From Leidyana gryllorum EB-2025a (lineage: Eukaryota; Protista; Apicomplexa), in contig JBLWGC010000230.1 in NCBI GenBank assembly GCA_048772705.1, positions 992,001-1,056,000 on the forward strand: a DNA stretch of 64,000 nt. Reading direction: 5' to 3'. The translations under genes were made by a program, and so were the position numbers. Positions 5,738 to 54,139 of the stretch are shown piece by piece; the stretch's first letter is position 1; each line of letters opens with the position of its first letter. Below the pieces are notes generated by a model. It was not told where the DNA came from. It saw nothing but the letters and a program-made list of their open reading frames with translations, and did no database searches.

Positions 5738-5855
5738 GGTGGCTACTTTGGAGAGGCGGGTGCAAGAGGGTGCACCGCTCGGGACCGCGCCATAACGGTC
5801 GGCTGTATGGCGGAAAACCAAGACAGACGCCGGGACGGAGTGGGGCATTTGCCTG

Positions 5856-8800: not shown

Positions 8801-9096
8801 GGTTAGTGGCAGCTGAGAGCGAAGAGGAAGAGGGGAACGGGGATGACCTGCGTGAAAGCGAAACCGTTGTGGTCAATCCCCCATACAGTCGTCCACCCAA
8901 CACCAACAACTACACTAACAACAATGACCAACACCAACAACAAGAAACTGATGACCCTCCCAATGACGATGATGATGACCCTGAGACCTACACACCCGCT
9001 GACACTCTCAGACAGCACAAAAGAAAAACACCGCCCGCCAGCAGCGGAAGTCTGCTAGTGAGCGAAGGCGGCGGCGATCAACGGTTGCCACTCTGA
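5856..9096 (+). CDS. ATG7: Ubiquitin-like modifier-activating enzyme ATG7; intron 7101-7155
   Basis: N-terminal VDVSFW...KLNVWKL, LNVKLIKWRILP, GMGTLGC, SNPARQSLF, LLTDSRESRW, LSCYFCND and catalytic RTLDQQCTVTR. The 55-nt GT-AG intron keeps the frame. Confidence 0.96.
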
Positions 9097-10913: not shown

Positions 10914-10966
10914 GTTGAAGGCAAGAATCGAAAACTCACTGGTGTTTTTGGAAACTTGTGGCCAAA

Positions 10967-15431: not shown

Positions 15432-15559
15432 TGCTGAGCTAGATATCGCAGACATTTGTTGCATTTGCGTGTACGGCGCGCGCATTGAGACACGAACAGG
15501 GATCTACTTTGTTCGCACGAACTGTGTGGAAGTTTAAAGCTTGTATATAATATTTCGCG

Positions 15560-21900: not shown

Positions 21901-22466
21901 ACGGATATGTCGTGATGACTGGATCTGACCCCCATATCTATGAGGAGCCGGCTCTGGGAAGGTCACACTCACAACGCCCGCCCCCAATGATCGATGGATA
22001 TGTGGTGCCCAGAAGTCCGCCCCGTATCGATGAGGAGCCGGCTCTGAGAAGATCCCATTCGCAACGGCCAGCCCCCATACCCCATGGGTATGTCGTGAAG
22101 CCTGGAAGCCCCCCCCGCATCCCTGAAGAGCCAGCCGTGAGAAGGTCGCAGTCACAACGCCCAGCGCATCAAAATTTGGAAAATCCTCAGACTCCGCCGC
22201 GAACGGTCGACGGAAGACCCGGTGGGGACCATCTCTCTATCACAGGCGACCGTGCTCACATAGACGGGCGCTGGGCAAATCCGATACCAAATCCGTTTGC
22301 ACAGCAGTGGTCGCTGGTAGAATTGCGATCCCAGCGAGCAGGAAGGCCCGTGAGCGCCGGGTATCAAGCGAAAACCGCAAGTGAATTGTCAAGAAACGAT
22401 GTGGTGGCAAAATGGCTGTCGATGGGTGACGCACTCGGCGAAGAAAACAATTCTGGATGGCAGTAA
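18952..22466 (+). CDS. Large repeat-rich hypothetical protein (about 1100 aa); intron 19682-19722
   Basis: A 41-nt GTAAGA...CTCAG intron joins the 18952 ORF in frame to the 19794 ORF frame. It carries two internal repeat arrays. Confidence 0.7.
20292..20690 (+). repeat. Coding tandem repeats of 48/57 bp (RRSPSITPATSGGQAV and RRSPASTPATSGGQTSPP-type units)
   Basis: About 8 RRSP-containing units are directly visible, several identical at DNA level. Confidence 0.9.
21800..22165 (+). repeat. Coding repeats of about 30 aa (EEPALxRSHSQRPxP...GYVV)
   Basis: Four degenerate copies are visible in the translation and in the DNA (gaggagccggctctg...caacgccc). Confidence 0.85.
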
Positions 22467-28091: not shown

Positions 28092-29894
28092 ATGTCCTCC
28101 TTATTATTGAGTTACCTTATTTTCCTCTCTGGTCTGGTCTCTGGACGGACTGACGAGTGTACCTATGCGATCGAGTTAGTTCAAGTTCAAGATGGCTCGA
28201 CGTCCTTTGACGGACACATACAACTGATGGCTAGTTTCATGACAGAGCTGTCCATGCAGCTGACAGAAAGGTACGGCGAAGTGAAGATAGGTTTATCGAG
28301 TTTCGTGGACAAACCAATCCCCTACACTGGCATTGGTCCGTACGGAGCGTATCCAGAATATACATGGGACTATTGCTATCGTCGGCATACGCCACTCACC
28401 ACCGACGTACAATCAGTGATTGAAGGGCTGAGCCACTTACAACACAATTTGGGAAGTGGGAACGATTATCCTGAGAACCCTTTCGAGGGCTTAATGTATG
28501 CAGCCGCCGATCCCGAGATGGGTTGGTCCGCTCCCGATGTGACGCACTCCCCCCAGGGACGTCCCTTAGTCCGTATCGCTATGCTCATCACCGACGATAT
28601 TCCACACGGCCCCCCAGACGCCTATGCCTCCACACAACTGGGCTGGAATTGGAAACGTACGTACCCGTGGGGACCGGATGCTGACAGCTCCGGCGGTTTC
28701 GGAGCCCACGACTTTATTTATACTAATCAAATCTGGACAGCCGACGGTCATGACTACCTCTATTGGGACATGGCTGATCTATTTGGCCGCTTCGACAATT
28801 ACCCTGACACATTCACAGAGGACGAGGAGAGACGACTTGATGAGTTGATAGGTATCTTCGGGCCTTATCCGTGGCCCGAGATCCCCCCGACCCATCCTGG
28901 TGATCTGTCTATGCCATGTGAACAGGTTGACTATCCCACTGATTTTCAAGCGGGAACTTTTATTCAAACATATAATATATTGCCTGTCTTCCTTGTCGCC
29001 GATCCTGAGGCTGTGGCCACCCCCATGGCTCGCGCTTGCGCAGAATTAGGAATGCCTGGCGGCAAGGAATGTCTGGTTGAGTATTACACGCGCAACGTTA
29101 CTGCTATGGGCCTCCCAGCAGTCGTCGATGCGATCAACGGGACCAACACGATGCAAAAGATCCTTGACACTGTTGAAACGCTAGTTGAACTTTTATGTCT
29201 CGATATCCCCACAACATCCACCGACCCCGCGACGACTTCAACGGAGCCCGCGATCCTCACCTCGGACCCCGCGACGACTTCAACGGAGCCCGCGATCCTT
29301 ACCTCGGACCCCGCGACGACTTCTTTGGATTTTCCCACAGAGCCCGCGACGACTCTTTCTGAGCCCGCGGCTACTTTCACTGCGACGAGCAGTGAAGCCG
29401 AGTGTACTGTCTTCGGTACAACGTCTGAGGGAGGTCCCTATGACTCCCCAAGTGAAAATCTTAGCACCAACTACGAGGTTACGACAGAAGAGTCCTTCTC
29501 CACAGAGGAGCTCGAAATAACATTGTCTCTGACTGAAATCGCGTCGAGCGTTCCCGTGATAGTGCCCCCGGGCCCTGGCCCTGACCCCCAACCCACACCA
29601 GAACCCACTACCAGTACGGAAGCCAGCAGTGTTACGGCCAGCACTCAGAGGCCCGTTCAACCAGTCCGAACGACCACCGCTGGCAGCGATGGTCCGAGCG
29701 TTGGGGTGATAGCTGGAGCTGCCGGTGGGGCCGCAGCGGGGGCTTTACTGCTGGCAGCTGGCATATGGAAGTACGGTGGAAGCCTGTTTGGGAGCAATCC
29801 TGAGATGGCTGTTGGACCCGAAGAGGTAGAGTCGCCGGATGCGCCAGTAGAGAGAGAGATTATGGAGGACGTGACGCAGGAAATGTTCCAATAG
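28092..29894 (+). CDS. Type-I membrane protein with an integrin-beta-like vWA domain, Thr-rich stalk, TM helix and acidic tail (TRAP-like architecture); intronless
   Basis: Signal peptide, MIDAS DGSTS, IGLSSFVDKP, YRRHTPLT, SGNDYPENPFEGL, MGW, MLITDDIPH, DYPT and NILPVFLV. TM VIAGAAGGAAAGALLLAAGIW. Tail ends EDVTQEMFQ. Confidence 0.85.
   Translation: MSSLLLSYLIFLSGLVSGRTDECTYAIELVQVQDGSTSFDGHIQLMASFMTELSMQLTERYGEVKIGLSSFVDKPIPYTGIGPYGAYPEYTWDYCYRRHTPLTTDVQSVIEGLSHLQHNLGSGNDYPENPFEGLMYAAADPEMGWSAPDVTHSPQGRPLVRIAMLITDDIPHGPPDAYASTQLGWNWKRTYPWGPDADSSGGFGAHDFIYTNQIWTADGHDYLYWDMADLFGRFDNYPDTFTEDEERRLDELIGIFGPYPWPEIPPTHPGDLSMPCEQVDYPTDFQAGTFIQTYNILPVFLVADPEAVATPMARACAELGMPGGKECLVEYYTRNVTAMGLPAVVDAINGTNTMQKILDTVETLVELLCLDIPTTSTDPATTSTEPAILTSDPATTSTEPAILTSDPATTSLDFPTEPATTLSEPAATFTATSSEAECTVFGTTSEGGPYDSPSENLSTNYEVTTEESFSTEELEITLSLTEIASSVPVIVPPGPGPDPQPTPEPTTSTEASSVTASTQRPVQPVRTTTAGSDGPSVGVIAGAAGGAAAGALLLAAGIWKYGGSLFGSNPEMAVGPEEVESPDAPVEREIMEDVTQEMFQ
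29223..29375 (+). repeat. 42-bp coding repeat (DPATTSTEPAILTS) in the mucin-like stalk
   Basis: Two near-perfect copies plus degenerate copies of gaccccgcgacgacttc. Confidence 0.85.
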
Positions 29895-31325: not shown

Positions 31326-32738
31326 ATGCCCGAAACTATCACTGGATGGCTGGAGCCCAGTGGGTGGGACTGCCTGGGTGCCCTCGTGTTCGCTATTGTG
31401 GGGGCAGCCTTGGGTAGTTGGACTGTACTGGGTCATCTTCGCCATTATGAACGACCCTCCCTCCAACGAAACATTGTCCGAATATTAGTCATCACCCCGT
31501 TGTACGCTGGTGAGTACATCAACACCGAGGCGCGTCTCTTCTCATACTTTTCATCGATGAACATCAGTCTTCTCCTTTCTGTCTCTTGTTTTCTCTCAGC
31601 ACTGGGTTCTGTTCGATGGTGTTCGCGACATATGGGAAGCTGTTGTTATATACTGTTTCTTGGCACTGATAATCGAATATGGAGGCGGCGAAGCCAACTG
31701 CGCGGAAGTTATGCAGTCTGATCCCGGTACGCCACACGCAAGATTGACCCAACTTTCCCTCGGCCCCGCGCCTGATCTCCACTCAACTGCGGTCTATGCC
31801 CACCAAAGTGTGTTCCTTGGATGGTTCACACCAGTTCAACGCAGTGTTACGTTCTGTGAAATCTGACTGATCATGCCTCTGACTACTGCAGGTACACTGA
31901 AGCATGTGTTCCCGATCAATATATGTGCCAAATGGCGCTGGACAAGAATACCGCCTGTCATCCATCTGACTCCAACATTTGTCAAATGGTGCCGACGAGC
32001 AACGGTGCAATTTGTGGTTGTCAAACCAGTGATGGCCTTCTTGGCAATATGGATGTATGTGGCTCGATACTGGCTGTGGCCAACATGGACAGTGTTTGAG
32101 TTTATCGTATACAATGTTTCTTATTCGGTCGCTCTATACGCCCTCGTGCTCTTCTATCTGGCTACTCGCACGAATCCAATGGTACAAGCCGTGCGACCAT
32201 TACCCAAGTTTTTGGCTGTCAAGATCATTGTATTTGCCACATACTGGCAGAGTCTCATAATACTTGCATTGAGTCCCCGCATGCCTCAAGAGACGGTCCG
32301 CGTAAGTTGTAAACCAGCAACATACAGCCTCACTCTCTGTCCGTGTAGCGATGGAACAGCTTCGTGCTTTGTATTGAGACCCCCATCGCCGCGGTACTGC
32401 AACTATACGCCTTTCCGGCCAAAGAGTTCTCTCCCGATGCCCCGAACTGGCGGACACTGGTGTTCAGAGGACGTGAAGTCTTCTCAGCGAAGGCAGCAAA
32501 AGAAGCGGACTTGGAAAGTGGACCTCCCAGTGCACAGATACCCTCGTCAGAGAAGTCCTCATCCCCTCCTCCCACTCGTAGAGGCGGAGGACGCGAAATG
32601 CTGGGGAGTGTCAAAGACGTGTTGGGCGTCACGGATGTGATGGAGGATGCATTGCATTCATTCAAGGCACGGTATGCTAAGCATGCTCAATTGAATATGA
32701 CGAGTGATGATGAAAAGGACCCAGACCAGAATATCTAA
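31326..32738 (+). CDS. TMEM184: TMEM184/organic solute transporter alpha family membrane protein, multi-exon
   Basis: HLRHYERPSLQRNIVRILVITPLYA, RDIWEAVVIYCF, QFVVVKP, LPKFLAVKIIVFATYWQ and LCIE. Confidence 0.9.
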
Positions 32739-32786: not shown

Positions 32787-34010
32787 TCACGCGGTTAATC
32801 TCCACTCCCCTTCAGGCGTCTCCCTGAATATTGGGGCGGAGTCCCCTTCAGCGCGTGGGTTAGCTCCCAGAAGAGCTCCATCTAATGACCAAGACAGGCG
32901 ATCAGCTCCTTCAGCTGCCAGAGGCAACAACTGAGCTTGTCTCCATACCTTGGATGATAGGTCCTAATTATTTTGATCGACAATTCGCAGCCCCAAGTAG
33001 AGGTACAAGAAGAACTCACCATCATCCACAGAATTATTGTCCCGTCAGCGCCAAGTGACGCAATCAAATCCCTGGAGGTGTCGCTATTGGGCTGCCAACT
33101 AGCCGAAAGCACAGCCGTATGATGACCAGTCAGCGAGGCCTCGCATAGCCAGCCTCCCGTGGTAGGCTCTGGCGACCACACGCAGACCTTCGAACAAACA
33201 AACAATTGAACACACACCTCGATCGCTACTTACACGTCCATCTAGACCTGCGGTCACCAGTTTTCGAGTTGGGGACAAGTTGTAGTTGGCATCCAATTGG
33301 GAAGTCGGTGCCTGCGCAGGATCAGAATAAGACCAATCCGTGGCGGTGGCTCCTCCCAGATGTGCCAGGGTACTCTTACGACCCCAGCTGTGATCGGCCA
33401 GCAAAGAGTGGACGATCAAGTGCCCGTCTTGCGAAGCACTTGCCAGATGTAGACCCACGGGCGCGTTGGGGGCCAAAGCAGTCACTTGATAGGCGCTGGG
33501 GGGCGCGTTGGCGGAGACAGAGAACTTTAAAGCATGAATAGCGCCCTTGTGGGTTCGGTCCCTATGGGGCGAGCGTCAGAAGTTGGGCTGATGTATAGAC
33601 AAACTTACGCGTAGACCTCCTGCCAGGTCCCGCTGTATGGCACCTCTTTCCAGACGCGGATCCAGCCGTCGAGGCCTCCAGTTGCGCAGATTCGGCCAAA
33701 AGTGAGTGGTCCAAAGTCAAACTGTCGACCGAAGGAGAATGAATGAGTGGAGCTGCTCGGGAGGTGTGTGGACTCACACACAATATGGGACCATCGTGAG
33801 CTTTGAAGGCCGCTTGTGGGACGCCTTCGGGGGCGGCGGTATCATATATTTGGCACATTCCATCCTGTTGTCGGGTGATAGTAGAGTGGTGTGGGGGTTA
33901 AGTTTGTTTACCTGAGATACAGTGGCGAGCCTCCGACCACATGGATCGAAGGAGGCAGCCGTAAGGGGCTTGGCGTGCTGTGTTGGGAGGGGTTGGACGT
34001 TCAGGAACAT
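32787..34010 (-). CDS. SEC13: SEC13-like WD40 protein, multi-exon
   Basis: [60 protein letters not shown] and C-terminal [10 protein letters not shown]. Confidence 0.75.
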
Positions 34011-34029
34011 CGGTTCTCAAAATTTGGAG

Positions 34030-35144
34030 ATGGATAGGTATCAGAAGCTCGAGAAAATCGGAGAAGGGACATATGGAGTGGTGTACAAGGCTCAAGATGC
34101 CAAGGGAGATTTGTATGCCTTGAAGAAAATCCGTCTGGAAACGGAGGACGGAGGGATCCCCTCAACTGCAATCAGAGAAATTGCTCTGTTAAAGGAGCTA
34201 CAGCATCCCAATATAGTAAAGTAGGTATTGTGGGCGGGCGCAGTGTACACAAAAGGGTCAGGTTATATGATGTCCTTCACACTGAACGGCGACTAACTCT
34301 GGTCTTTGAGTATCTGGATCAAGACTTGAAGAAGTTGCTTGATGTCTGCGATGGTGGTCTGGATCCTCAGACCACCAAGTCATTTCTATATCAATTATTA
34401 AGAGGAGTGGCTCACTGTCATGATCACCGTATACTTCACCGTGACCTCAAGCCTCAGAATTTACTAATCAATAGGGTCAGTAGCAACACATAGGAAGGAG
34501 AACAGAACCGACACAAGTAGTTCTACAGGAAGGAGCGCTGAAACTCGCCGACTTCGGGCTCGCCCGTGCTTTCGGGATACCAGTGAGGGCTTTCACTCAT
34601 GAGGTTGTAACATTATGGTACCGCCCCCCCGACGTGCTGATGGGCTCGAAAAACTACTCTACCTCATTGGATATATGGAGCGTAGGATGCATCTTCGCCG
34701 GTACGCACTCTTTCTATCTCTCGGAATATTTATTCCCCCTTAGAAATGGCCAACGGCCGGCCTTTGTTCCCTGGCGCATCTGACTCTGACCAACTCATGA
34801 AGATCTTTCAGATACTGGGTACACCTGATATAGGCAGCTGGCCGGAGGTGCAAAAGCTTCCACAATGGAAGGTAGGTCACCTGCTGCTCTGCTGTTCGCA
34901 CGCTCGCTCACCCGACGCACACACACGCTCTTTCTGCTCGTCCTCAGCCTGACTTCCCCCGGATGCAACCCCAAACTTGGCACAATGTGGTCCCACGACT
35001 GGACCCGTTGGGCGTTGATCTACTCTTCGTAAGTGAACTGCAGGAAGACCCCGGACCATTTTTGTGTAGCAAATGCTGGTGTATGATCCGTCCAAGAGAA
35101 TCAGTGCTCGCGATGCGATGCGTCATGCTTACTTTTCGTCGTAA
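34030..35144 (+). CDS. CDC2: Cyclin-dependent kinase (CDC2/CRK2/PK5 type), five short introns
   Basis: [39 protein letters not shown] and DIWSVGCIF. Confidence 0.97.
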
Positions 35145-35168: not shown

Positions 35169-38100
35169 ATGGTAAAACTAAGCGATCTGGATGACAGCCA
35201 GTTAGCAGCACGTGGTCTCAAGAGGGTCCGAGTACACGTTGAAGTCCAGCTCAAGCTCAAGGCCGACGGGGATGAAGACGCACTCGAGGAAGCCGAGAAG
35301 AGGGCTCGCCACTTCGCCTCCAAGCTCGATATGCAGCGACTCGCCAGCCTCGCCCGCAAGCACAGCTTTGTTACCACACCTCTCAATGTCGTCATGTCCA
35401 AACCCCAGGGCCACCAGGCGAGACGTGGCAGCGACTCCATTAGCTCACTCTATGAGATTCGAGAATTCAAGAGCCCCACTGCCAGTATTGTACACGAAGC
35501 TCAATCACCTGTCAAAGCTGCATTCGAAGTCAAGTTTCCGCGCGTCGTGCGCACACTGCGATCGATCGGAAAGTTTACACGCCGTGTATCGGGTGTAGGC
35601 AACTTCCAGCTCAATGGGAGACGCGCAGATAGCCTCCTGGGGAGTGCAGGAGCACATTCCTCGGTGACATGCGGAAGTTTTGCCCCGCCAGATGTACTGA
35701 CCGGAGAACTGTACAGACTCGGCGACATGTATTGGTTGCCTCATACAGAACACGTTATCGCTCCAGGACTGTGCGTCAATGCTGGGTGAGTAGTATTGAT
35801 CGATAGCGATCAATCTTTCTTGACCGCCCACGCAGGAACGACGGGCACCGTAACGCTCCCGAATTCGCTTATCAATGGCCACCACAGACAGCAAGTGTCA
35901 CCAGGTGGAATTCGATCACCAGAGTCAGCCACACTAACCATTGGAAATACAAAGCCAAACAAGCGCCCTGGTTCCTCCAACGTACCGAACAGTTCCTACG
36001 ATGCGAAGTCTTACCCAACATTGCGCAAAGCACTCTTGAAGACTGCAAAGAAGGGGACTGTCTCGAGGCCATGGCCGGGATCAACACCGCCACCGTACTC
36101 CACAAAATCCGTGTTGAGGCAGTCAAGCCAGAATTCCTTCCTGTTGGAACGTGTCTCCGGCTACACGGCAAAATAGTGCTGGCCATACATCCCGAACGAT
36201 GCGGAGTACTCGACGAAGCTGCCATCGAAGAAGGGGTACAATTCGAACGTCAAGTTTGGCTCAATCTCAATGCCATATGCGCCGGAGGGGTCAGTTGGCA
36301 GCTCCCCGCCTCCACCAATCAGGTAATCCTCAGTTGTCGCCTTCGATCGCTCTCATCCGCTCGTAGCCCCTCTTAGTCGCACTGCAATCGATTTCTGAGA
36401 CTGGGAAGGCGCAGTCTATTGTGATTATGGGCCGAAGGGGGACCATCGAGACGGTAACGGCTCAGGAGCTCAGCAACCAGCTCACTTTCCTGAGCCGTCA
36501 TCTCGATTGGTACTACAGAGGTCCCAGTTGTCACGTAGCAGCGAGACCTTTCCGATTGATCTATAACGGTCGGAAAGGCGCATTGAGAAAGATTAGTCGA
36601 AGGGCCTCTCCGGAGGCCACTCTGAATGAGATGAATCGGCCCGTGGATCCCGCCACTCGGACGAGCTCCGGACTGAAGCGACGCTTCTCACTGAGGCCTA
36701 ATCGAGACTCCAGTGAGACTCAGATTCTACCGCGAGTCTTCGACCGCAAAACGAGCAGTCTAATGGCTCCGCTATTTGGAAACACCTCAGACATCCGCAA
36801 CATGAGTCTCCTATCTGCCAAACGGCGGTACGGTTCCGAAGGGTTTGTGGGGGCAGAGAAGACTGCTTGGCGCAGAGTTTCGACAGAGACTTTGCGGAAC
36901 GCAACGTCGAGGAGCCCCACGTTTGCTCAAGGCACACGCGCTGGGAGCAAACGAGTCGGTCGGCCCGTGCGTAAGTGCATTCATTGTTCATTCAGTCTCT
37001 CCACATTTCATCTGCCAATCTGATAGCGGTCTTCACCAACAGTCCATCGATGGGCCGGAGAGTGTCAAACAGAGTGAACGGCACCCATTGGATGGTGCGG
37101 GAAATAGACGACGCGGTACCGTCGAAGCTGATGGATCGGATTCTTGCGGCCGAGATGATCTGCAGATCCTTCACCTGCTGTCCGACCAGCACGACCCCGT
37201 GGAAGTCGTTGGCTTTGCGGGGCATCAAGATCTGTTTCGCTCGGCCATTGGCAGCACGGGCAGGGCGGATTTTGGACGTTCTGTTGGACACCTCACCCAT
37301 TTGTGCGTTTGTGGACACTCGACTGCGTCACCAACAGGCGATCAATTCGTTGGTGATGGACTTTGGACGCAAAGCTCGAAATCGTGTCCTGTTAAACAAC
37401 TCTTTCGAGAGTGATTCCGATATGATGTCGAGCGTAGGGACACCGAGCTCCGCTTCTGACGAGGATTTATGGCAGGGGGATACGCCCTGGCCCTTTCATA
37501 TCTTCTTCCAGCTTCTGGGTGAGCTGCCCTCCCATTATAAGATCCCCTCTCCCATCTTTGCACACAGAGGGATACGAGACTTCGCTTCCGGAGTCGCTCT
37601 CGAAGAGTTTGAAGCTTCCGTCGTCGGATCCCGCGAAATATGCCCTCTTCCAGCCAATGACCGATGCGTTGAATCGATTCTCCGCCCGTATGAATGACGT
37701 GGATGAGAAGCTGCCGTTCGTCGACTCGACCCCACTCGGCTTTCTACTGGGCGGAGTGGAACTGAATTTGCCCCCGGACGCCCAATTGTTGAGACTCGAT
37801 GAACAAATGAAACGAGCCGAGCAACTCCGGCTGCGAATGATCGATGAGGAGAATGAAGCGTTGAGGAATCACCAACAGCGGCCACCCGCGGGTGTCGTCT
37901 ATCCTGGAGGCGATAGTGTCCCTCCTCCGGCCCCGGGAGCGAAGCGTGTCACTATTTGGGAAGGCGAGCCACCGCCAGGAATGGGCGAGGTGCCTGACGT
38001 GATGAGCACTGCCGAGCATTTAGCGCCCAGATATTATCAGGAGCAATTCTACAAGAGTCTATTGGGTAAGTGACATTCGAGACTGCGTTTTGATAAGGAG

Positions 38101-41100
38101 AGCACGCGTTCGGGTGAACGCTTCAATCACTGCGGGGAGACGCGTTTTCCGGATGGGCTTTGAATCGATTCGAATTGAGTTCCCATTTCCATTCCATTGC
38201 ACTCCACACTGTCCATGAACGGTGACCCAATGGATGTCGTACGAAATCGCTTTGATACACTCGTGTGCTGATTGCAGTGGATCACGCTATGAATGCGTCT
38301 ACGACATTTGGGCATCTGCGAGATACGTTCGGTTTCAACGTTGCCGAGTTGGAGGCGACCGTTGGGGTGCTGGCGGCCATATTGCATATGTCTAACCTCA
38401 GCTTCACGGTGTTTCCACCGATCGAGACGTATATCGTGGCGTCGTCTGCTCAAGCTGCGGAAGAGAGTAATCAGGCTAATGAGATGACAGGTCTGAAGGC
38501 GGCCCTGTCTCTTCGTCACAATCGTTCAGGCCGTCAAATAGCGAGATTGACCAATGAGGATTTGTTACGTTTGGCTGCAGACGAGGGACACGCTTTGTTC
38601 TTGCGAGCAAGTGGAGATCCAACACCAGGCCCCAATGAGTTGGCTGACATACGACATCGGTTGACCAAAACTACAGCGTGTCCAATTCGACCGACAGCTG
38701 TCAGTCACGCGATTTATGCTGCGAATTTACTCCAAGTCCCGGTGGCTATGTTTGTGGCTTTGTTTTCGCGAGCTCTGGCGCAACAGCACAATAGTGGTGA
38801 CAATCAAGTGGATTCTTTGTTCGAAGTCTCCAACCACGCGCACCTTTATGAGGAAGAATCCATGTTGTCGAAAGGGATACAGAGCGTTGAAGTAATGCAG
38901 ATTGCCAAAGGAGGTGAAAACGAGGACCCCAGACCAGATCAGGCGATGGTCCTTCCAGCCTGGACCTCCATCCATTCATGGATGCCATTAGATCAGTGCC
39001 GAAGTGTGAGGAAAGAAGTGGCTGCTGCATTGTATCGGCGTCTCTTCGATTGGATTGTGCACCGAATGAATCTCTGTTTGGTCACAGAGCCCGCACTGAC
39101 AATGATGAACGGAGACATCAACCCTCTCAAACAGATTGAGCTCGACTTTAACAACGCGCTCTTCCTGATCGATGGTCCCCCCTTCCTGGAACCACCCAAA
39201 GTGTGCGACAATATGGAGTTCCTTCTCACCACTCTCGTTGAGGAGAAGTTACACCAACTGTATTTGGTTCAAACTTTCCGGGAGTACGCTTTGAACATCC
39301 AGTTGGAAACCGGAACCACTCTTCCACAAGAGTGCACCCTGGATCCACTTGATCACCCAACGGCTTTGGAGCTGCTCACGTCACCTGACATGAGCGCCCT
39401 TTGCCGTCAGCTTGCTGCAAGAGCTCTCGAGAACGAAGAATCGACTAAAACGTGGCTGGTAGAAAGATCGCCCACCTCTCCGTCAGAATTACCCTCAGCC
39501 GGAGGCTCAAGCGGAGAAGATGAGAACATTGGTGATCTGATACTGAGAAATGTCAGATCCCAAAGTATTCTCGCTTCAAAGTGAGTTTAACAAACAGGGC
39601 TCTCTTACCAATCACACCTCACTCAGTCGTTTCGGAGGGTCCGGCTTTGCAGTGAAACACTTCTTTGGGACCACCGAATATCTCGCGTCCGATTGGGTTG
39701 ATCGGTTCAACCGGCATATCACACGAATGTTGGATAATTGGGCTGCCCACACCCGCTCACCAGTGTTGCGGGAACTGCTTCAGAGTCCTGTCGCTAGTGA
39801 GTTCGAATCTTTGACCCTCAGCACATCTCACCACTTAGACCGAGTGGAACCGATGACCAGTCAGGTCGAAGAGTCTATCACTAAACGTAAGGCTCCACAT
39901 CTTGCGACGATCTGCGACAATCTCACCTCTTTGGGTCCCAACAGTGCCTCTGGCCAGAGCTTTCACGGACTCCACTCGTTTGCTACAATCATTAGATAGC
40001 ACTGAAGCGCGCTTCATTCTGTAAGTGGCGAGGAGGCGGCTGAGATTCACACCACCGGTCAGAAATATATCCGTGCCCTTCAATGACAAAGTACCCGACT
40101 CCATTAAGGTATTCCAGCAAACAGAGCGGTTTGAATTAGCCAAGGTCGCGAGACTCATGACCAGTGTCCCTCTGTGCACCATACCCTTGACTACCTTCCT
40201 TCGTCGCTACGCCCTCCTCGAAAGGTATATCAGTAAACGACAGAGCCCAATTGTCCCTCCTCCCTTCCGACCCGTAAGTGTGTGTCGCTGCCCCCCGCAG
40301 ATCAAAGCTCGCGCACAGTTCGGAGACACAGCTGTTGATGAAGAGGAGGCCAACTTGTGCAATGCCACTGCCGCTGTAAAAATCGAAACAGCTCTTCGCT
40401 GGGTACGTGTGCGTGGGTCAGAGTCTGTCGCTCATATAGAGCTCTGCAGATGAACCTCTTCCGCACCTCTGGAGTTGTGACCTATCATGACGCCGACATC
40501 AAAGTTGGTCAAGGAGAGCTGAAGCTGCCGGGAAGGGTGATGGCGGCGATCGAAGTTCTCTGGTGAGATGGGGAGGAGACCGTGCTGCAATCTGTGTGCA
40601 GGACTAAAGTGGTGTCTCAGCGCATCACGAGACTTCAAGCTGGAATTCGGGGCCATAAAATCAAAGTGCGATATCGGATCGGCCGCGAGGCCCGCTTGAT
40701 GTACCTGAAATTGGAAGCGGCCTACCAGAAGGCGGCTGCTGACGGATGGAATTATCTCAAGCCTCCGGCTCTGGAGGATGTGGTCACTGGAGAGGAACTG
40801 CAGGAGAGGTAAGGGGAGTATTTCTCAATAGTTCCGCATCTCTCGCCAGAGTCCAAGCGTTCATCGACGCGGCAGAGTCCTGCGAATGGTTTTTGGAGCA
40901 CTTCTTCTCCAACAAACGCTTACATGAACTACATGCAACAATTGACGTTCTCAAGGAACACGCCTCTTTACTATGGTATGCAATCGCGACGGTCTCTCCA
41001 CTAAATTCACCTCAGCGAGTGCGAGAGAATGCTTCGACGCGGAGAGACTCAGGGCCAAGCGATTGACTCCCTCCTCGCTGCTATCGCCCGCGAGGGACTG

Positions 41101-42423
41101 CAAAGCGATACGGTTGCCATGGTGAGTCATTTGCGAGGGAAGGATGGCTGCGGATGGATCTATGGGCCATTTCCTCTCTCTCATCAGTTGACACTCCGGT
41201 CCACTAAACTCAAGGCTGAGGAAGTGTGGAGGCGAAAGATCATTCGGGCCCTCAAACATAAGTAAGCTGCAGCAAAAAGCAGACAGCGGGGGACATCGAT
41301 CGTTCTCAGTAACTTTGGGGCCGCCGCAGCGGTACTGGAACAGATCAGGTTACATCGAGTGAGTCTGCACACTGTGAACTCAGTCGATTGACAGCCCAAT
41401 CGTAGTCTGCCGGAGATATTATCTCTCCGCATTTGAGCCATTTGGTGTCGGAGTTTCAGAAGCGATCTGACGGGTCCCGAATACCGCGACCGGAGGCTAC
41501 CAATGGACGTGGCACAGACGGAGGGACTTCTCGACGGAGCCCGAAGGGTGCCCACATGAGGGTGCAAACCAAGACTTCCGTACTGCCGTCACGGGTACGT
41601 TGTCCTCGCTACGTAAACCCTCTTAAATCCATCTGTGCTCAGCCGATGCTGTGGACTACAGCACAGAAACCGCCACCGATATGCGAGACACAGTTGGACC
41701 AATACGTGAAGGGTATTTTATCGCCTGCTGGAAAGTTTGAGGCCCAGCGAGGTGAGTGGGGGGAGGTGGTTTTGGAGTAATATTGGCTTTAGAATCGTTG
41801 GGGGGTTCGAGTTTCAGCCCGAACCGTAAGCTGCAACGTCAATGACCTCATGAGAGTGTACTTCGTCGATCATGGTGGCGGTCGCCGCCTTTGCATTGTT
41901 AAAAGCTTCATCGACATACGCTCTGATATACGTTGTCCGTTGAGGGCATCACAATATCGGACCACTCACTTAAGCTCTGCGCTTGTGATGCCTTTGTGCG
42001 CTGCAGTGGGTTGGATGATCTCTAATCGAGATCTGCCAGGATCCGCTCGCTCTACTGTTCTGATGCAGTCTTTCTCGCTAACCCACTTGTCCTTGGCCAC
42101 TGTTACATTGGAAGAGAAGAATAACATTATATTGCTCTCTTTGCGTGCCAGACTCACGATGAAGGACGAGGACGTAAGGATATAAGTCCAAACGCATATG
42201 TGCCTTGTCTCCAGTGTACTTGGCATAGCTCTCCATAGCCGGGGAGATGAGCACAAAGGCGGGTTTGGGACGGGCGATCCGCCGGCCTACAACTGCGCCG
42301 AACCCCGATGCAACTGACGAGACGTTGTCACAGAAGCCACTGCTACACAAAAAAGAGTCTCACCGATCATATTGGGCTGGCCGCTGTCGTATGCAGCGGT
42401 GGCAATTCGAGTGGCTCGAGTGA
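35169..42423 (+). CDS. Large, highly divergent unconventional myosin (degenerate motor, IQ motif), many exons; 3' end uncertain
   Basis: Ordered myosin landmarks: INTATVLHKIR, IVLAIHP, QSIVIMG, FHIFFQLL, VLAAILHMSNLSF, AAALYRRLFDWIVHRMN, EEKLHQLY, FAVKHFFGTTEY, FLRRYALL and IQ-like ITRLQAGIRGHKIK. Confidence 0.85.
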
Positions 42424-42633
42424 GGACTATCGACATGACACCTTTGAAGAGCATAATCTCAGTCACAACACCTCCCACAATCTGTGATATAACAATTCAT
42501 TTTCTCGATGCGCTATATCACTCACCAAAATACCCAGGATCGCCAGTGCACCTCCCAGTGGTAGGAACAGAAACCCGAGACTGCAGTGAAGATTTTTGAC
42601 GGACTCCTCGTGCGCCATCACGCACACGCAAAC

Positions 42634-43130
42634 TTACATTATTCCAGTGATGATTAAAGCTGCGAATAGAGCCAATGCTGCAATACTGATATTCAGGGTC
42701 TTGCGAGAACGCAGATCAGGGGCTACAACATTTTGAGGACCATAGATTTCCTCCAGTAGCCGCTGGATCTCTGGCTTCCCCTTGGCGCGAAGCCTGAGTC
42801 TATATTTTCTGCAAATCATTCCGTAAAAGCCCTTACCCATGCAGATACAGGATTTGTGGTGCCATACGGCTTGTCCATACACAAGCTGCAAATTGTGTGT
42901 CGGCTGTGTTTTGTCACATGCCTTTCCTCCGCAACTATAGCGCTCACACTGTACTATGTACATCGACATTGGTAATCATCACTCACCAATGTCGCTTGTG
43001 CCCGGATCCCACCACTCCAGAGGAGAGTGGCGAGAATGTGCGTTGGGCACCGACATGGAGTGACCCGGCAACAATTGACGACAACTGTTTGCGGTGGACG
43101 GGGGAGCCACCGTATGAGGAGGCGACATTC
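42634..43130 (-). CDS. Small hypothetical protein, possibly spliced, with a C-terminal hydrophobic segment
   Basis: 111-aa ORF with several Cys and terminal ISIAALALFAALIITGIM. A GTGAGT...CATAG intron candidate lies at about 42955-42987. Confidence 0.3.
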
Positions 43131-43409: not shown

Positions 43410-44898
43410 ATGAAGTTGCTAGGCAATGTGGGGGCAACATTGCTGGCCCAATCGTCACTCCGATCGGCCTACGGCGATGAAAATCTGCTAGCCGCTGGTG
43501 AGTTGCCGATGCCGGAGCTATGCTATCCACCGAATGGGGACCCCATGAATGTGGAATTGGAGTTTTTGATCGATGTGAGGGGAGCGATGAAGCCGCATAT
43601 GCCGCTGTGGCGAGCAGCCTTGCCAGAATTGTATCGAAAGCTACGTGGTACTATTGGAAACACATTCATGAGACGCATTATTGGGATCACTGACCGGCCT
43701 CAAGACGGACCAGACGATCTTGGAAAGTCGCTTATAGTCTTTGAGAGGCATAACATATCCAGGCACAGTGACTTGCTGGCTGCCTTGAAGGATCTTGACG
43801 ATTTGGTACAAGAAGAGCCCGACGCAGATTTCGAGCGGGATCCTTCTGACACCACGGGTTGGCCAGGAGCCTCGAAATACGATTCAAAGACTGGAACTGC
43901 CATACTCGACTTCATCTATGATCGATATGCGAACCAAATTTATGATGGAGACATTCCGGGCCCTCAGTTCATGATAGTCACTACTCCAGCGGTGCCACGA
44001 GTCAAAGGACATACAGGGAAATGGTTTGACGACGCTCCTGTTCTCTGGGACCAAATCACATACACGAATTCCTCTTATCTGGAGGTTGCTGAGGCCAAGA
44101 CCCGCCTCAAAACCCTGAATCAGAACCTTTATCACATCACCATGGTAGCTCCCACCGAGGAGGGAACTATTGCTGGCCGAGTTGTTGACACTTTTATGGA
44201 CGATCTTGCGCTCACCCCTCGCTGTTTCACTAACAATCTTAACGTGGGAGGCCTGGCAACTCTGGACACTTACCTGGAGTCAACGACTCGTTGGGCTATC
44301 TGTGCTTGGGTGGGTGCGCAGTACGGTACGGTAGCGACCACACCAGCTCCTTCGTCTACAACTGAGATCACGACGGAGGCCACAACAACGACGGGAATCA
44401 TTCCTCCCATAACAACGTGGCCTCTTACGAGTTTCAGCACAGAGTCGGTAAGTAAAGGTGACGTGTAGAGTGGGATGTGCTGGGTGGAGGACGTTTGCGT
44501 TTGTGTGGCTGTGTGTAAGGATTGATTGTACACTCATTGTTGGGTGGATCTGAGGGTGACAATATTTTCAGACGGACGAGGGTTCTGGCGGGGAGAGTTC
44601 CACCGAGGACGGAGACGGCGACGGGGAAGGAGGTGGTCCCCCCGGGGTCATCCACAGCCGCCAAGCTCGGCCAATTTTATGGATTTTGATTATAGTCTTC
44701 GGGGTGGTGGCGATTATAGCTCTGATATACCTCCTTTACAAATGGTGGAATCGTCCTGCACCTCTGGTGATCGATATGGACGAACCTGTGCAGGAAGATG
44801 AGATCCGAGGAGCGCGCAGGGCGACTATTGTCAACGTTGATGAGGCCGAGGAGGAGCAAAGTGCGGAGATCACGCCGCCAGAGGGTTCTCCCAGATGA
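43410..44898 (+). CDS. Type-I membrane protein with a degenerate integrin-beta-like vWA domain (paralog 2); intron 44448-44571
   Basis: Signal-like N-terminus, LEFLIDVRGAM, GITDRP, FMIVTTPAVPR, SSYLE and a Thr-rich stalk. A phase-0 GTAAGT...TTCAG intron joins to TM ILWILIIVFGVVAIIALIYLLY and an acidic tail. Confidence 0.75.
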
Positions 44899-44940
44899 GT
44901 GCATGTGATTCCAGACAATTGTGCCAAGAGGGACGATGCC

Positions 44941-46266
44941 ATGAGGTATATATCAGCACTTTTGCTGGTTTTAGCCAGACAGACGCAGGCGAGCGTAGAA
45001 TTGTGCCAGACACCCGAGAACTACGGATTGGAAGTGGTTTTGAGCATCGATGTGCAGGGAACGTTTCGAGCTCACTGGCAGCACTTCCAAGTCGGGTACA
45101 CCTCAGCACTATATGACATACACAGAGCATTGCCGGAGGCTAACATTACAGGGATTCAAGCTTTTACTGACAGGCCGGACTATTTGCCCGCGATTGATGA
45201 TCCAACTACCATCTTCAAGTTTCGCCAGGCCCCCACCAGTAACCTTGACGACACTGCTGAGGGTATCCAACTCGCTTCAGAGGTCTTGAAGGAGAAGAGT
45301 TGGGGAGACATGTCTGGAGGCATGTCTCTGGCTCCAGAGTTTCTTCCCGTAGCCAACAAGTATGAGTACGCAGGTTCTGAAGGCAGCGCTGGCTTGGATG
45401 TGATCTATCACATGGCTCGGGATTATCCCTGGTCGCCGGTGGCCGGTCCCAAGATCCACATTCTGGTCACCACAGCAATACCCCGGGAGTTTGGACACAG
45501 TGATACCCTCTGGGACACTCAGAATCCACTTTGGAACAACATAATGAGTGTGAGATCTTCCTATGTGGACATTGGAGGTGCGAGTATCCGGCTGGCCGCG
45601 TCTAAGGACCACAATGTGTACACCTATGTTCTCTCGGGCATGACAGAAGGAGGGGCAAATGCTGTCCCTTTATGGACAGATTACTTGAGTCAACTGGGAT
45701 TGACTCCGTACTCGGAGGTCTTTTATCTGTATCCTCATCAGTCGAGTCTTATAACAGCTGCGATACTGAGGGCAGTGAGCCACAGTAGCTGCCATTGGGT
45801 GGCGCATCAACGGGACCCGCCCGAGACCACCGAGCATCTGTCCGACGACGACTCGACCGAAATCAGCACCGTTGAGCCCCCCACAACAGCTCCCATTGAG
45901 GGCACCACATTTTCGACTTTGGATGCTTTGGAGTCGATCTCTTCGAGCCCCTCCAGTCTCACTAAGCCCACAATGCATTTTTCGAGCACACCAACTTCCA
46001 GTTCCACTGCCACTCTCACGTCGCCGGCCGTGGATGTGGACGATGCGGGGCCCTCTCCTCCCGGGAGACAGTCAAAGCCCAATATGCCATTGGTGATTAT
46101 TGGTGCTACGATCGGTGGGGTTGCAGTGCTGTTGTCGGCAGGAATACTTTTGTTTGGGGCGGCTACCTCGACGGTGGTGGTGTCAGATGATGTAGGCGAC
46201 AGGGATAGAGACGAAAGTTTGGTGAGACTGCATCGCGAAGGTGACGATCAGAGGGCGAGACTCTGA
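44941..46266 (+). CDS. Type-I membrane protein with a degenerate integrin-beta-like vWA domain (paralog 3); intronless
   Basis: Signal MRYISALLLVLA, LEVVLSIDVQGTF, AFTDRP, HILVTTAIPR, SSYVD, Ser/Thr stalk, TM VIIGATIGGVAVLLSAGILLF and an acidic tail. Confidence 0.75.
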   Translation: MRYISALLLVLARQTQASVELCQTPENYGLEVVLSIDVQGTFRAHWQHFQVGYTSALYDIHRALPEANITGIQAFTDRPDYLPAIDDPTTIFKFRQAPTSNLDDTAEGIQLASEVLKEKSWGDMSGGMSLAPEFLPVANKYEYAGSEGSAGLDVIYHMARDYPWSPVAGPKIHILVTTAIPREFGHSDTLWDTQNPLWNNIMSVRSSYVDIGGASIRLAASKDHNVYTYVLSGMTEGGANAVPLWTDYLSQLGLTPYSEVFYLYPHQSSLITAAILRAVSHSSCHWVAHQRDPPETTEHLSDDDSTEISTVEPPTTAPIEGTTFSTLDALESISSSPSSLTKPTMHFSSTPTSSSTATLTSPAVDVDDAGPSPPGRQSKPNMPLVIIGATIGGVAVLLSAGILLFGAATSTVVVSDDVGDRDRDESLVRLHREGDDQRARL

Positions 46267-46333: not shown

Positions 46334-49300
46334 TCAAGTGGACATGACTGATTCAACATAAGCTTTAGCGGCTTGTCGACAGTTAGCCAAAGAATCTTCG
46401 TCTCCGTATGTTTTCTCGAAGGATTGCCACCGAGAGAAGATCGGACGCATCTTGGTGGGCTTGAGAGCGACTTTGATGGCTTCCATGAAAAGCTGACGTG
46501 CGGCACTGTGGTTGAGGAGAGTGTGGATTGGTCACATTTGGTTTTGACGACTTACCTCCTCTCAGTCTTAGAGTTGTTGCGCCGAAGTGCCGATATCTGG
46601 GCGTCGAACAAAACGTTCCAAATATCCGTCCGCTTCGGTTTCTCAGCCAACACCTTCAAGAAGATGGTACGCCCTCTGTGTAAGAGACAGTGTAGGAAGA
46701 GAGCATTTTTTCTGTGTGCTTACCTCTCAGGGCTCCCGTAACGGAACTCGAAGCGGCCAACTGTCGTCTGCAGTTCAATGTGGGCGGACTTCTCTGTCCT
46801 ATGCAGGGCTTTGCGAAGTGTCTCGTCGATCCGAGATCGGGTCAGTGATGAGATCTTGACATTGGTGTGCTCCTTGTTAGCAGCCAAAGGTGCTGCCAAT
46901 TCTGCGCTTCGGGAATCGCGCATGTAAAGGGATGCCAGATACCGCGCCCAAACAGTGGGGTCGGTAGCCAACTTTTTGAGCATTCGGTCTGCGAGGGTGT
47001 CCAGGGGGGCCCACTCGCCCCGTTTCTCATATTCGTCAAGCATATGGAAGTATATAGTTTTGGCATCATTGTACTGAAGGGCCTCCTCGAGTACCTCTTT
47101 GATCATATCTCCAAAGTTGAGCTCCAGATTCAGCCAGGCTATCCATATCTTCAACTTCTCACCACTCTCGACATTCTCAATTCCTCTCTTCGCCACTTCA
47201 CGAGCCTTCGTGATGTCTTGGAGTTTCACGTGGTACGCCATATAACCGATCCAACATCCAGCAGTGTCTCCCGAGATCAGCGCGAGACGCTCGAAATCGT
47301 CCACTGTCTTCGGATCGGCCTCCCAGGCACCCGTAGCATTGCGTCGTTCAATCTCACGCGTCAATTTCTCATTCTCCAAATCCAATTCGGCGGACTGCCC
47401 GCTCATAGCCTTGAGAGAGGCTTTGCTGCCGGACATCATGCGAGACATCGTGGCATACTCTTTGACACGCTTCATTACATCGTCCTCGTCAAGAGTGGCA
47501 GAGGTCTCCATACTGCCCATCCAGTCCCGAGAGCTCATTGTAGATAACTTGTGCAAAATCCGAGCTTCGGCGATGTCACCATCAGAGAGGTCCTCGTCAT
47601 CTTCTTCTCTCTGTAACTCCTCCATGTCCTCGTCCTCGCAAGTGCGAGGAGTCCCCAAATCGTCAGCACTGACAGTACTCTCCTCATCACTGTCCATTGA
47701 TGACGTCTGCAACTCGCCCATCGTCTGCGATGGGTAACGCAGAAAAGCAGGACTGGAGTCTCGAGTTGATGAGCTCTCGCCGTTCTCCACATTCTCGTCA
47801 TTATCTGTCTCATCTGCAACCTCTGCTACATCTGCTTCCTCCTGCTGCTCCTCCTCCGCCATACCAGCGTCTCCGGCCCCTTCAGCCTTCTCGACGGCAC
47901 GCGAAATGTCCAGATCGGTAAAGTAACTCTTCTTCATACCAACTGTGATCCGCCGACGCTGCTCATCCTTCTTCAAAACCTTCACCACGACATGGTCGCC
48001 TGGTTCCAGCTTTGAGTCCAGGGTAACACCCACATCCACAATTTCTGTAGTTGGACACAACGCATCCAACTTCTCAGAGTTATGAAACGTGATAAAGACG
48101 CCAAAACTTTCCATTCGTTTGATACGAGCCACCACAACATCTCCCTCATTCAGATTCTCAAATGTTACAACCCCCTCACGGCCAACAATATCAGACAGAA
48201 TGTCTGTCTTCATTGACCCTTCGGCTTGATTCTTCGCCAACGAGACACTGGCGACCCGAACATTCGTCACAATCTTTCCAACAGGGAACGCTTCACTCAA
48301 AACAGCCTCGTCCCACATTGTCTTCCCAGCAGCGAGCAGCTTTTGCACCTTACGTCCGGCCAATTCCCGTACCTTCACGCGCACATAACAGCGACTAGAC
48401 AGGTATACGTAAACACCTTTGGGACTACTTGAACGAATCACACCGGCATAAGCCTTGCCCACAACCAAATCCTTCACTGATTGCGGGAGGGAAGCGCAAT
48501 CTGCAGATCGGAAACTTCCCTCAATCAAATTGAGATCTCCCTTTCCATCCTGCATACAGCACTCCAGGGACCGAGGCATAACTTCGGTTGGCGCGATCCC
48601 AATTAACCTCACAGTCACAACATCACCAACAGACACTGTGTCCAGGGGATCGACTTTCGTCGAGACTTTATCCTCAATTTCCATCGCATGAACCCACGCG
48701 CGCAAACGACCGCAGAGCACCACGCTGACTGCGTTGCGTCTGCTGTCCTTGGCTTGGATACGTCCTTCGACCTCGGCTCCGATCCCTCCCATTTTCTCTA
48801 AAGCCTTCTGGGCCACAGACTCCATAGAATCATTGACAAGGTCCACACTAAACGGCAGAGGCGCGTTAATCTTCTGTCGCTCCAGCAAAGACGACCCGTT
48901 GGAAGTCTTGTTGTCACCCCTATCGGCAGGCTTCTCACTCACTTTGTCCAAGTCAATGGATGCAGTGACATTAAGCTTCCCATTACGAGTCTGGGTTTGC
49001 GAAACCCGAACCTTGATGCTCGCGCCGATCTTGTAACGCTTCATGGCTAAGATTCTGGCCTTGGCGCTCTCAGAGATAGCGCTCGGATCGAAGAACTCCC
49101 GGCCCTCCAGAGTACAGCAGATGTCAGTGAAGGGCACCACTGCGCTAAAGTCTCCGTATCCGCGTATAACCAGTCCAAATGGCATCACACTGCTGACATA
49201 GCCCTCCAAAATATCATTCAACTCAATAGTAGTTGGATCTAAGTGCTTCGCAAGGCGAGCATCATCGATGTTCAGCAAAGTCTTCTTGGCGGTCAAAGAT

Positions 49301-51057
49301 ATGACTTGGCGACCCACCTCGACCGTCAGAACTCTGAACTTGTGAACGGAACCTTCTTTGTAAGAGGTGGGGATTTCGTCAGTTGCCACGTCGCTCAGTT
49401 GTTCCTTTCGCACACGTGCGCGAAGGTAGGGCGACAGCTCAATCATCAGATGCGATTCATGTTTTTTGACCACGGTTCCTTTGACGAGGCTGCCGACGGT
49501 GGCATCCGCTAATCCAACAAAAGCTTCTTCCAGTAGCTTTTGGGTCATGCCGGCGCTGACCACTGCGTCTATGAGATTGACATGAAGTACGCGGAAGTCT
49601 TGGCGCTGTCCGAGGCTCATCTTGATCATTTTCGCTTCGACACCCTCGTCGGCAACCTTATCCTTGGCGCAGTGTACTAAGAATGCGTCGTTGAATGGCA
49701 TTTTCCATTCCTGGAGCTGGGGATCGGTCGCACCAGTGTCACTGACAGATTTAGCATCCTGGGCAGCAACAGCTCGGATGCCGATTCCAGTTTCAATTTC
49801 GGCAATCCGTGCGGCCTCAATTTTCGAGCCGCTGCGGAGTGACATTAGGGGTGCGGTAACGAACTCGTTGCGCAAATGCACGATATGTGCCAGCGCAGAA
49901 ACGACCAGCGTGGCACTGGCTGCGGTGCCAGTGTTTCCAGGGATGATGGCGATCACTCTGCCTAAGAATCGGTCGTTGGTACCGAAGCGGGGGCACAGTA
50001 TCGGCCAAGTATGCAGGCGTTTCTGGACGTTTTTTGCTGATACGCCTTCTGTTCTTCCAGTGGTGGCGGGCTTGTAGGGCCATACGAGAGTGGGATCTTC
50101 GGTGGTGTCAATGTCAGTGGTAAGACGGCTGAATGGGTGGTGTACATGGAGGCGGGGTATGATGGCCGTCATGGTGTTTCCGAGTCTAACGTCAAGAGAT
50201 GCGATGCCTTGCGGAAAGCACTTGGTGATAGCATGTTTCTTCTTGGCGGGCAATACAGTGGATGAGGAGTTATTGGCAGCATTAGAGGGGGGGGCTGTGA
50301 CTGCCGTGACAGCACATTCACAGAGCTGGCCAGCGAGGAAGCTGCCCTTGTCCATATCGGCATTGACTGAGATATAGCGCAATCTGGCATCGTCCCCGTA
50401 TCTCGCCACGATTAACTTGCTTTCCTTTTTGACGGCTTCGACTGTGACGAATTGAAAGCTTCCAACTGTGACGTTGGCGAGCTGTTTATCATCGGTGACT
50501 TTGGCGAAGACTTGGCAAGGATTTTTATCGTTGATATCCAGAGATCCGTGGAATCCGTGCTCTTCTACCGAGGTGACCCGGACCAGAAGGAGTTGGTTCT
50601 TGACGGGAGGCCACTCGACTCCTTTGTTGAGGAGCGCCGGGCGCATAGAGAGAGGAAGGAAGCCTTTTGGGCCATTGGGTATGTCTTGACGCTCACTGGA
50701 GAGTACTTGGCAGAGTACATATTGTCCCTTGACGTAAACTTGAGAAAGGGGAGCGGAACAGTCTGCCGCGAGGGCATCAGCAAGAAAAACAAATCCTCTC
50801 TGGCCGCAAGGCAAGTCGACCAGTAATCGGTCGGAGCAGACCAGTGAGATCACTCCCAGTACTTTAGTCTGGGGAGGATAACGAAATGTAGAGTGAGTTG
50901 TTGAGACAGGTCTCGATGATTCATTGTTTCGTGTTTGAGATTCTTCTTCTTGAGAGCGGTGCTGTTTTTTCCTCTTGACCGACGGATTCTCGGCAGAACT
51001 TGAGGGTCGTCGTTTACCGGGGCTATGCTCTCCACGAGGAAAAAGGGGGACCGGCAT
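46334..51057 (-). CDS. RRP5: rRNA biogenesis protein RRP5 (S1 repeats plus C-terminal HAT repeats)
   Basis: LFPRG N-terminus, multiple S1 repeats, DDFERL, WIGYMAYH, EKLKIWIAWLNLE, FEFRYGSPER and KPKRTDIWNV in the 3' exon. Confidence 0.93.
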
Positions 51058-51579
51058 CCTCCTTTGAATCGGTTTTTTGTCTTTTGCGGCACTTCATTCC
51101 AGCTTGGTGCTCGCTATGCATACTGATAAGGTGCCCATTTCTTTCCCGCTTCGGCTTTCTGTGACCTGACCAGCAGCAACGGGTGTCTGTCTAACAATCT
51201 CCACAGACCGCACGACTCACTGGCAATGAGGTGAATGTTATATCATCGAGAGGGGCCCGCGCTTCAGCCGACCCAATGAGTCTCGACGATGAAGCACTGT
51301 CATGGGACCAAACCTCAAATCTAAGAAGAGAGCAAACTAATTTGATGACAGTAAAGAAGCGACCGCACTCACTTCAAATGCCGCGTTCGTGCGTTGTCAA
51401 ATATATACTCGAACGGGTTAACGAACCTGTACTCGCGAATATCTCGGCCATACTCCTCCAATGTGCGAACGTGCTTCAAAGGTCTGGAGGCCAGCGGTTT
51501 TGCTTTCCCACTGTAAACCACGAAAAAGGGAATCTGCGATCAATCCAGTCAGACAAACAGCATCAGAAACAACACACTC

Positions 51580-54086: not shown

Positions 54087-54139
54087 CACATCGATCCCCC
54101 CATAAGATTTTTACAGTGCGGATCAGAGTCCAAGTCTAT

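Follow-up and report, generated by a model that had tools for sequence, protein, structure and literature searches.

A conserved gregarine pseudo-myosin with rebuilt nucleotide-binding motifs, predicted to lack ATPase activity

Myosins with inactive heads are already known, among them myosin-18, Limulus myosin-3 and the Toxoplasma protein MyoL. MyoL of Toxoplasma gondii (TGME49_291020) is a myosin-like tether of the preconoidal rings. Its ATP and actin sites are divergent, it carries four IQ motifs and an RCC1 tail, and its neck and tail suffice for function, the head being dispensable (bioRxiv 10.64898/2026.01.06.697858). It may still move actin, according to PMC12819142. The stretch analysed here, called the window, comprises 64,000 nucleotides of the apicomplexan Leidyana gryllorum EB-2025a (contig JBLWGC010000230.1, positions 992,001 to 1,056,000) and contains the gene of a large, divergent myosin, referred to below as the pseudo-myosin. 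Neither its P-loop nor its two switches keep the canonical form; each has been rebuilt, so that the protein is predicted to have lost ATP hydrolysis, and that it is ATPase-dead can be proposed with high confidence. This myosin-fold protein probably serves as a static cytoskeletal scaffold and has an origin separate from that of MyoL.

The gene model was assembled by hand from the three-frame translation and splice candidates. It starts with an ATG located 24 bases past the stop of an upstream CDK-like gene, and its 18 exons, separated by 17 GT-AG introns, encode 1877 amino acids. The introns are 39-66 nt long, apart from a single one of 212 nt. The window as a whole is compact eukaryotic sequence with short GT-AG introns and a GC content of 48-59%. 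The joined reading frame has no internal stop across about 1,880 codons, and read-through of 14 of the 17 introns leads to a frameshift or an in-frame stop. If positions 41752-41792 are spliced out as an 18th intron, the gene ends at 41845 and encodes 1885 amino acids. A preliminary description of the locus had extended it to 42423, but the last 600 or so bases of that extent belong to a convergent minus-strand gene (41814-42762), which rules out such an end. Because of this gene, and because the orthologue from Blabericola terminates just past the segment aligned to the last window exon, the pseudo-myosin is taken to end at 41780 or 41845.

Orthologues were sought by a HMMER scan of 1.84 billion representative sequences with exon 6 as a query. 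Five matches were obtained: a protein of Gregarina sp. Poly1 (P0001, E 1e-76), two fragments from Blabericola migrator (P0002 and P0003), an artefact caused by repeats, and a fragment of an ordinary myosin. Profile searching yielded a single further sequence, P0006, again a B. migrator fragment. P0004 was rejected as a relative, being a repeat-driven false match. The true relatives found come from these two species alone, both gregarine parasites of invertebrates, which makes the source of the window likely a gregarine as well. No match was returned by a word-based search of exon 6 against longer proteins, and the 54 pattern matches of a metagenome scan with P0001 comprised no relatives. A literature search, mostly confined to sources outside subscription journals, found no published description of this gregarine protein. 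The orthologues (EukProt) are unnamed and unannotated, and their record names look like those of transcript assemblies. They are collinear with the window model and 38-41% identical to it. At least one orthologue crosses 15 of the 17 splice junctions without a gap, junctions 9 and 17 being those without such support, and matching to P0006 and P0001 breaks off precisely at introns 2 and 6 of the window model, as if intron positions were shared and the introns had been retained.

As the orthologues back 15 of the 17 splice junctions, the gene is, as far as its sequence tells, an intact and conserved pseudo-myosin and not a gene in decay. The preliminary description had named an untranscribed pseudogene as the case against it. 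A pseudogene in decay, or an artefact of wrong splicing, is hardly credible as an explanation: the hand-built model would leave room for an artefact, but a reading frame kept open over 17 consensus introns, collinear orthologues in two species and a 14-residue invariant run, of which about 1e-5 would be expected under independence, all argue for an intact gene.

The nucleotide site was compared with that of 120 canonical myosins of class I, V and XI-type, dereplicated to 56 for a hidden Markov model (HMM). The canonical pattern of the P-loop is present in 117 of these references, that of switch I in 119 and that of switch II in 120, and none of the three occurs in the three gregarine sequences. 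The P-loop position (36412-36453) reads QSIVIMGRRGTIET, as described earlier, and the lost Lys is replaced by Glu in all three species (GRRGTIET in the window, GQRGYDEV in Gregarina sp. Poly1 and GERGYDEG in Blabericola). In switch I (TPWKSL, QGWVSC and EGWVSC, in the same order) the second Asn is replaced by Trp and the Arg is gone throughout, with the second Ser retained. Switch II (DGPPFL, DGPEFR and DGLEYG) retains the Asp and, in the MAFFT register, has lost the Gly and Glu in every species; the reading DGPPFLE at 39171 given in the preliminary description is correct. Both partners of the salt bridge between the switch I Arg and the switch II Glu, the role of which is described in PMC3122231, are consequently missing from all three proteins. 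The destruction of all three catalytic motifs and the conservation of the substitutions in both Gregarina sp. Poly1 and Blabericola migrator agree with the pseudo-motor proposed at the outset.

The placement of the motifs rests on several alignments. The earlier observation that NxNSSRFG is missing holds, but its search after LDTSPICAF does not, since this element (37284-37310) is the counterpart of LLEKSRVV and lies downstream of switch I, now placed before it at 37194-37211. A 60-residue ungapped canonical block fits the window model best at amino acid 603 (Z 5.1), and its best positions in the two orthologues (Z 4.5 and 5.6) are homologous to this one; MAFFT gives the same register. A switch I located after LDTSPICAF is disfavoured by both methods, although local hhalign preferred that register; NxNSSR was found in neither. 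The P-loop and switch II are placed by the HMM, hhalign, MAFFT and the neighbouring relay helix; an ungapped P-loop profile located the P-loop in the window only, and a 12-residue switch II profile failed to pick out switch II unaided in any of the three species.

Canonical catalytic motifs were not found in the three forward frames of the region, read by eye, and the orthologues are collinear across the motif exons; for these two reasons no splice form appears to restore the motifs, including the spliced GESGAGKT/SSRFG version that the preliminary description had envisaged as refuting evidence. The motifs are altered, yet the gregarine proteins have kept the identity given above, which rises to 50-60% in two segments, those of switch I and HIFFQ (50-53% in the switch I segment alone). 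This points to selection on the changed site rather than decay, and indicates that the nucleotide site has been rebuilt. A rebuilt site could in principle still bind or slowly hydrolyze nucleotide if its conserved residues (Arg, Glu, Trp, Ser and Asp) had taken on new roles, making the protein a sensor or a slow motor. The conservation of the substitutions themselves (GxRGxxE, WxS and DG) and the retained switch I Ser and switch II Asp would fit such a protein, but the P-loop lacks its phosphate-binding Lys and its second Gly, neither salt-bridge partner is left, and milder changes are enough to abolish ATP binding in Drosophila myosin-18 (PMC3122231), so that residual nucleotide turnover is highly improbable.

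Judged from sequence and modelled fold, the protein is of myosin superfamily descent. The canonical-head HMM built from the 56 sequences scores the spliced model at 44.9 bits, versus 1.8 for the best of 100 shuffles, 24 of which were reported at all. The match is more than chance, and its alignment reproduces the myosin order of landmarks noted earlier and places a Glu at the P-loop Lys. Profile-profile comparison with canonical heads by hhalign gives a probability of 98% (E 6e-14), with the N-terminal part misaligned. All PDB sequence matches of the pseudo-myosin among the best 60 of 85 are myosins, and ESM Atlas recognizes exon 6 as a myosin head (0.94, with a recognition value under threshold), while offering weak leads for the tail. 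The relay helix is the best ungapped profile match in the window, P0001 and P0003 (Z 5.0-5.4), and elements of the upper 50K, relay and lower 50K regions are kept and conserved. Divergence is nevertheless strong: core identity to the reference set is about 20%, versus a mean of 51% among the references themselves, and of the 117 columns in which canonical heads reach a conservation of 90% or more, P0001 retains only 36. Residues 190-1354 of P0001 were modelled with AlphaFold, and the model (pLDDT 51, with core segments at 70-95; pTM 0.55) matches myosins at Z of about 20, and all 13 fold matches with Z of at least 8 are myosin chains, one of them identified by inference from its entry.

The N-terminal extension, large insertions and IQ motif (at about 40621) of the preliminary description are borne out. 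The extension carries the basic 14-mer FPRVVRTLRSIGKF, the longest three-way invariant run of the whole protein. Its residues follow the 1-5-8-14 spacing, a calmodulin-binding motif type, and together with the adjacent RRxS it may be a calmodulin- or membrane-binding helix with a kinase site; the 14-mer has no sequence match in the PDB. Two of nine basic kinase-type sites are conserved in both orthologues. An SH3-like region, presumed from resemblance only, possibly lies ahead of the N-terminal head subdomain. The head spans approximately amino acids 280-1580 and is enlarged by long inserted stretches, both at loop 1 and within the upper 50-kDa region. Insertions lie in or near its actin-facing surface, so that the actin binding proposed in the preliminary description is no more than possible. 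In the neck, the IQ-like motif (40624-40665) scores 14.3 bits against Pfam IQ, under the cut-off of 20.3, and the second site, ending in WNY, aligns weakly with class II necks. The tail of about 240 amino acids following the neck abuts the convergent gene. It is helical in a single-sequence model of P0003 of low confidence (pLDDT 36.5), and a fold search with this poor model returned generic helical matches and no specific one. Pfam detected no RCC1 repeats in P0003 or the tail exon and no PDZ domain in exons 1-2 or P0001. The tail also contains a second basic 14-mer with 1-5-8-14 spacing (41227-41312, plus strand; amino acids 1742-1755), which spans intron 15, occurs in Blabericola as well and is a possible extra calmodulin site.

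The retained and conserved 50K and relay elements would suit a nucleotide-independent tether or cross-linker of F-actin, in which gripping actin with the head is the main function, by analogy with myosin-18, whose heads bind actin without ATP (PMC3122231). In MyoL, on the other hand, the actin site is divergent and the head can be dispensed with (bioRxiv 10.64898/2026.01.06.697858). No long coiled-coil rod is seen in the low-confidence tail model. In the hhalign alignment, the region of the cardiomyopathy loop and the helix-loop-helix, which we take to be the actin-facing surface, contain insertions or are rewritten. An actin-gripping function is accordingly quite unlikely to be the principal one.

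For comparison with MyoL, the myosin-like chain of PDB 9YA0 was taken as MyoL. It ranks 12 of the 13 myosin fold matches (Z 9.3, rmsd 5.7, 351 aligned residues, 13% identity) and is outranked by 11 active myosins with Z of 12.8-19.6, in a search with a model built mostly on canonical myosins; the aligned span covers 465 residues in 9YA0 versus 973 in the gregarine head. This fold comparison revealed no special closeness to MyoL in sequence or structure, and no MyoL chain appears among the sequence matches listed (in one PDB search the best 60 of 85; whether that copy of the database contains 9YA0 was not checked). The pseudo-myosin could still be a gregarine MyoL orthologue that diverged past BLAST detection, had its RCC1 tail replaced and tethers preconoidal rings. 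Both proteins presumably belong to the same phylum and share a long N-terminal extension, a dead head and an IQ neck. BLAST did not find MyoL in G. niphandrodes or Porospora, although both have PCR4, PCR5 and FRM1 (PMC12819142, supplementary table), so a diverged copy could have escaped notice there. However, MyoL needs its neck and RCC1 tail, and an HMM survey by Koreny et al. counts other putative MyoL homologues in gregarines, two of them in G. niphandrodes (PMC7951837, Table S3). Orthology is therefore rather unlikely, and a separate origin is more likely, because no RCC1 tail was found and 9YA0 is a poor match.

The preferred explanation remains a static scaffold that arose separately from MyoL. 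In such a protein, nucleotide would be repelled or shut out by the Glu at the phosphate-binding Lys position and by the switch I Trp, and for this reason no power stroke is expected. The head could act as a rigid platform, the insertions of which bind partners; a light chain of the calmodulin family may sit on the IQ neck, and anchoring may be the task of the helical tail. The N-terminal basic helix and RRxS site would place docking under calcium or kinase control, with the cortex, epicytic folds or apical complex as candidate locations. A bolder version, unlikely as it stands, envisages a second, independently inactivated lineage of pseudo-myosins in Apicomplexa, overlooked by standard annotation and working as a calcium- and kinase-switched cortical strut of the epicytic folds, which organizes active motors and helps to explain gliding.

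Several points weigh against the preferred explanation. Single exons score 17.6-17.7 bits and orthologue fragments 13.9-15.5 bits against Pfam Myosin_head (PF00063), under the gathering cut-off of 33.3. Canonical myosins make up 31 of the 37 rows of the alignment behind the P0001 model, so its fold match is in part circular and could be biased against MyoL. The calmodulin-type spacing of FPRVVRTLRSIGKF is a lead only, since 61% of 500 shuffles contain such a pattern. The relatives number two, both fragmentary. Finally, the survey of Koreny et al. contains MyoL candidates in 6 of 11 gregarine datasets, according to our own reading of one table column (PMC7951837, Table S3).

Table 1. Features of the pseudo-myosin gene and of its surroundings in the window (aa, amino acids)
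Feature	Position	Strand	Basis or remark
Pseudo-myosin gene	35169..41780	+	no internal stop; 15/17 junctions collinear in an orthologue
N-terminal extension, aa 1-180	35169..35708	+	35% identical to P0001
Basic 14-mer FPRVVRTLRSIGKF, then conserved RRxS	35535..35591	+	invariant in three species
N-terminal head subdomain	35709..36322	+	weak hhalign match of aa 180-430 to canonical heads; MAFFT
Degenerate P-loop GRRGTIET (canonical GESGAGKT)	36430..36453	+	Lys to Glu in 3/3 species
Insertion of ~170 aa at loop 1	36523..37082	+	conserved RRxS at 36679-36690; low pLDDT in orthologue model
Degenerate switch I TPWKSL (canonical NxNSSR)	37194..37211	+	ungapped block and MAFFT
PWPFHIFFQLLEG (canonical NYHIFYQLL region)	37485..37572	+	invariant in three species; spans intron 4
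Degenerate switch II DGPPFL (canonical DIxGFE)	39171..39188	+	MAFFT register
Relay helix	39204..39287	+	ungapped profile match
Neck: one IQ-like motif, weaker second light-chain-like site, conserved WNY	40624..40761	+	Pfam; class II necks
Conserved helical tail, aa 1636-1792	40762..41474	+	54% identical to P0003 (85/157)
Convergent gene, 3' part	41814..42762 and beyond	-	5 GT-AG introns (44-58 nt), frame open across all of them
ATG7	5796-9096	+	Pfam
Phosphoglucose isomerase	9903-10985	-	Pfam
GH20 hexosaminidase	15551-17509	+	Pfam
OST-alpha transporter	31867-32640	+	Pfam
RRP5	46720-51093	-	Pfam

The pseudo-myosin gene is closely flanked on both sides. The CDK-like kinase gene (about 33950-35144, plus strand), recognized by eye, stops 24 bases ahead of the myosin ATG, and since the gap is so short, its 3' untranslated region (UTR) and the myosin promoter or 5' UTR likely overlap. 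The stop of the convergent gene lies 34 bases from the myosin stop, or the two genes overlap by about 30 bases. Its product is presumably alpha/beta-hydrolase-like, as suggested by motif order with no database match; membrane helices are inserted in it, and its nucleophile elbow is atypical. A single open reading frame (ORF) at 28092-29894 (plus strand) encodes a type I membrane protein with a signal peptide, a stalk rich in Thr and Pro, a single membrane helix and a tail that is short and acidic; it contains an integrin-beta VWA domain above the Pfam cut-off (E 1e-6) and, in our view, resembles a TRAP/MIC2-type adhesin without the C-terminal Trp. Long ORFs at 43410-44468 and 44899-46266 (plus strand) match no Pfam family above cut-off, the former having a signal-peptide-like start and a Thr-rich end. 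No Pfam family was detected in the long ORFs 12411-13886 (minus), 19686-22466 (plus), 52186-53055 (minus) and 53136-54110 (minus).

The gregarine protein is further altered than myosin-18, in that all of its three nucleotide motifs have been rebuilt, in versions common to three species. Because its Pfam score is under the cut-off, myosin inventories would probably miss it. If its origin is separate from that of MyoL, a motor was turned into a structural part twice in Apicomplexa; should it be MyoL instead, the protein missing from gregarines in the inventory of the preconoidal rings would be accounted for. In both cases it offers a concrete starting point for studies of the gregarine cytoskeleton and gliding, which match the standard glideosome model only partly (PMC9250747). 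If the cortical strut were true, it would bear on gliding in gregarines, where GAP45 is mostly missing.

Overall, the pseudo-myosin shares the fold and landmark order of the canonical myosin motor domain (PF00063), from which it differs by its low core identity, sub-cut-off Pfam score and missing catalytic motifs. Like class XVIII (MYO18A/B, Drosophila myosin-18) and Limulus myosin-3, in which ATPase-dead heads serve as tethers or scaffolds (PMC3122231, PMC7900500), it would use an inactive head for a structural purpose. The precedent of class XVIII, invoked in the preliminary description, is nevertheless an analogy and not a membership: in myosin-18 the P-loop retains its Lys (GRSGAGKS), some isoforms have a PDZ domain and the coiled coil is long, whereas in the pseudo-myosin this Lys is Glu, all three motifs are rebuilt, and neither a PDZ domain nor a rod was found. 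With MyoL it has in common the dead head, the N-terminal extension, the divergent ATP site and the IQ neck. It differs in having one clear IQ-like motif and a weak second site instead of four IQ motifs, a head longer by about 500 residues, and a helical tail with no RCC1 repeats found, in place of the RCC1 tail required for MyoL function. MyoL, unnamed in the preliminary description, is the closest precedent and stands nearer to the gregarine protein than class XVIII.

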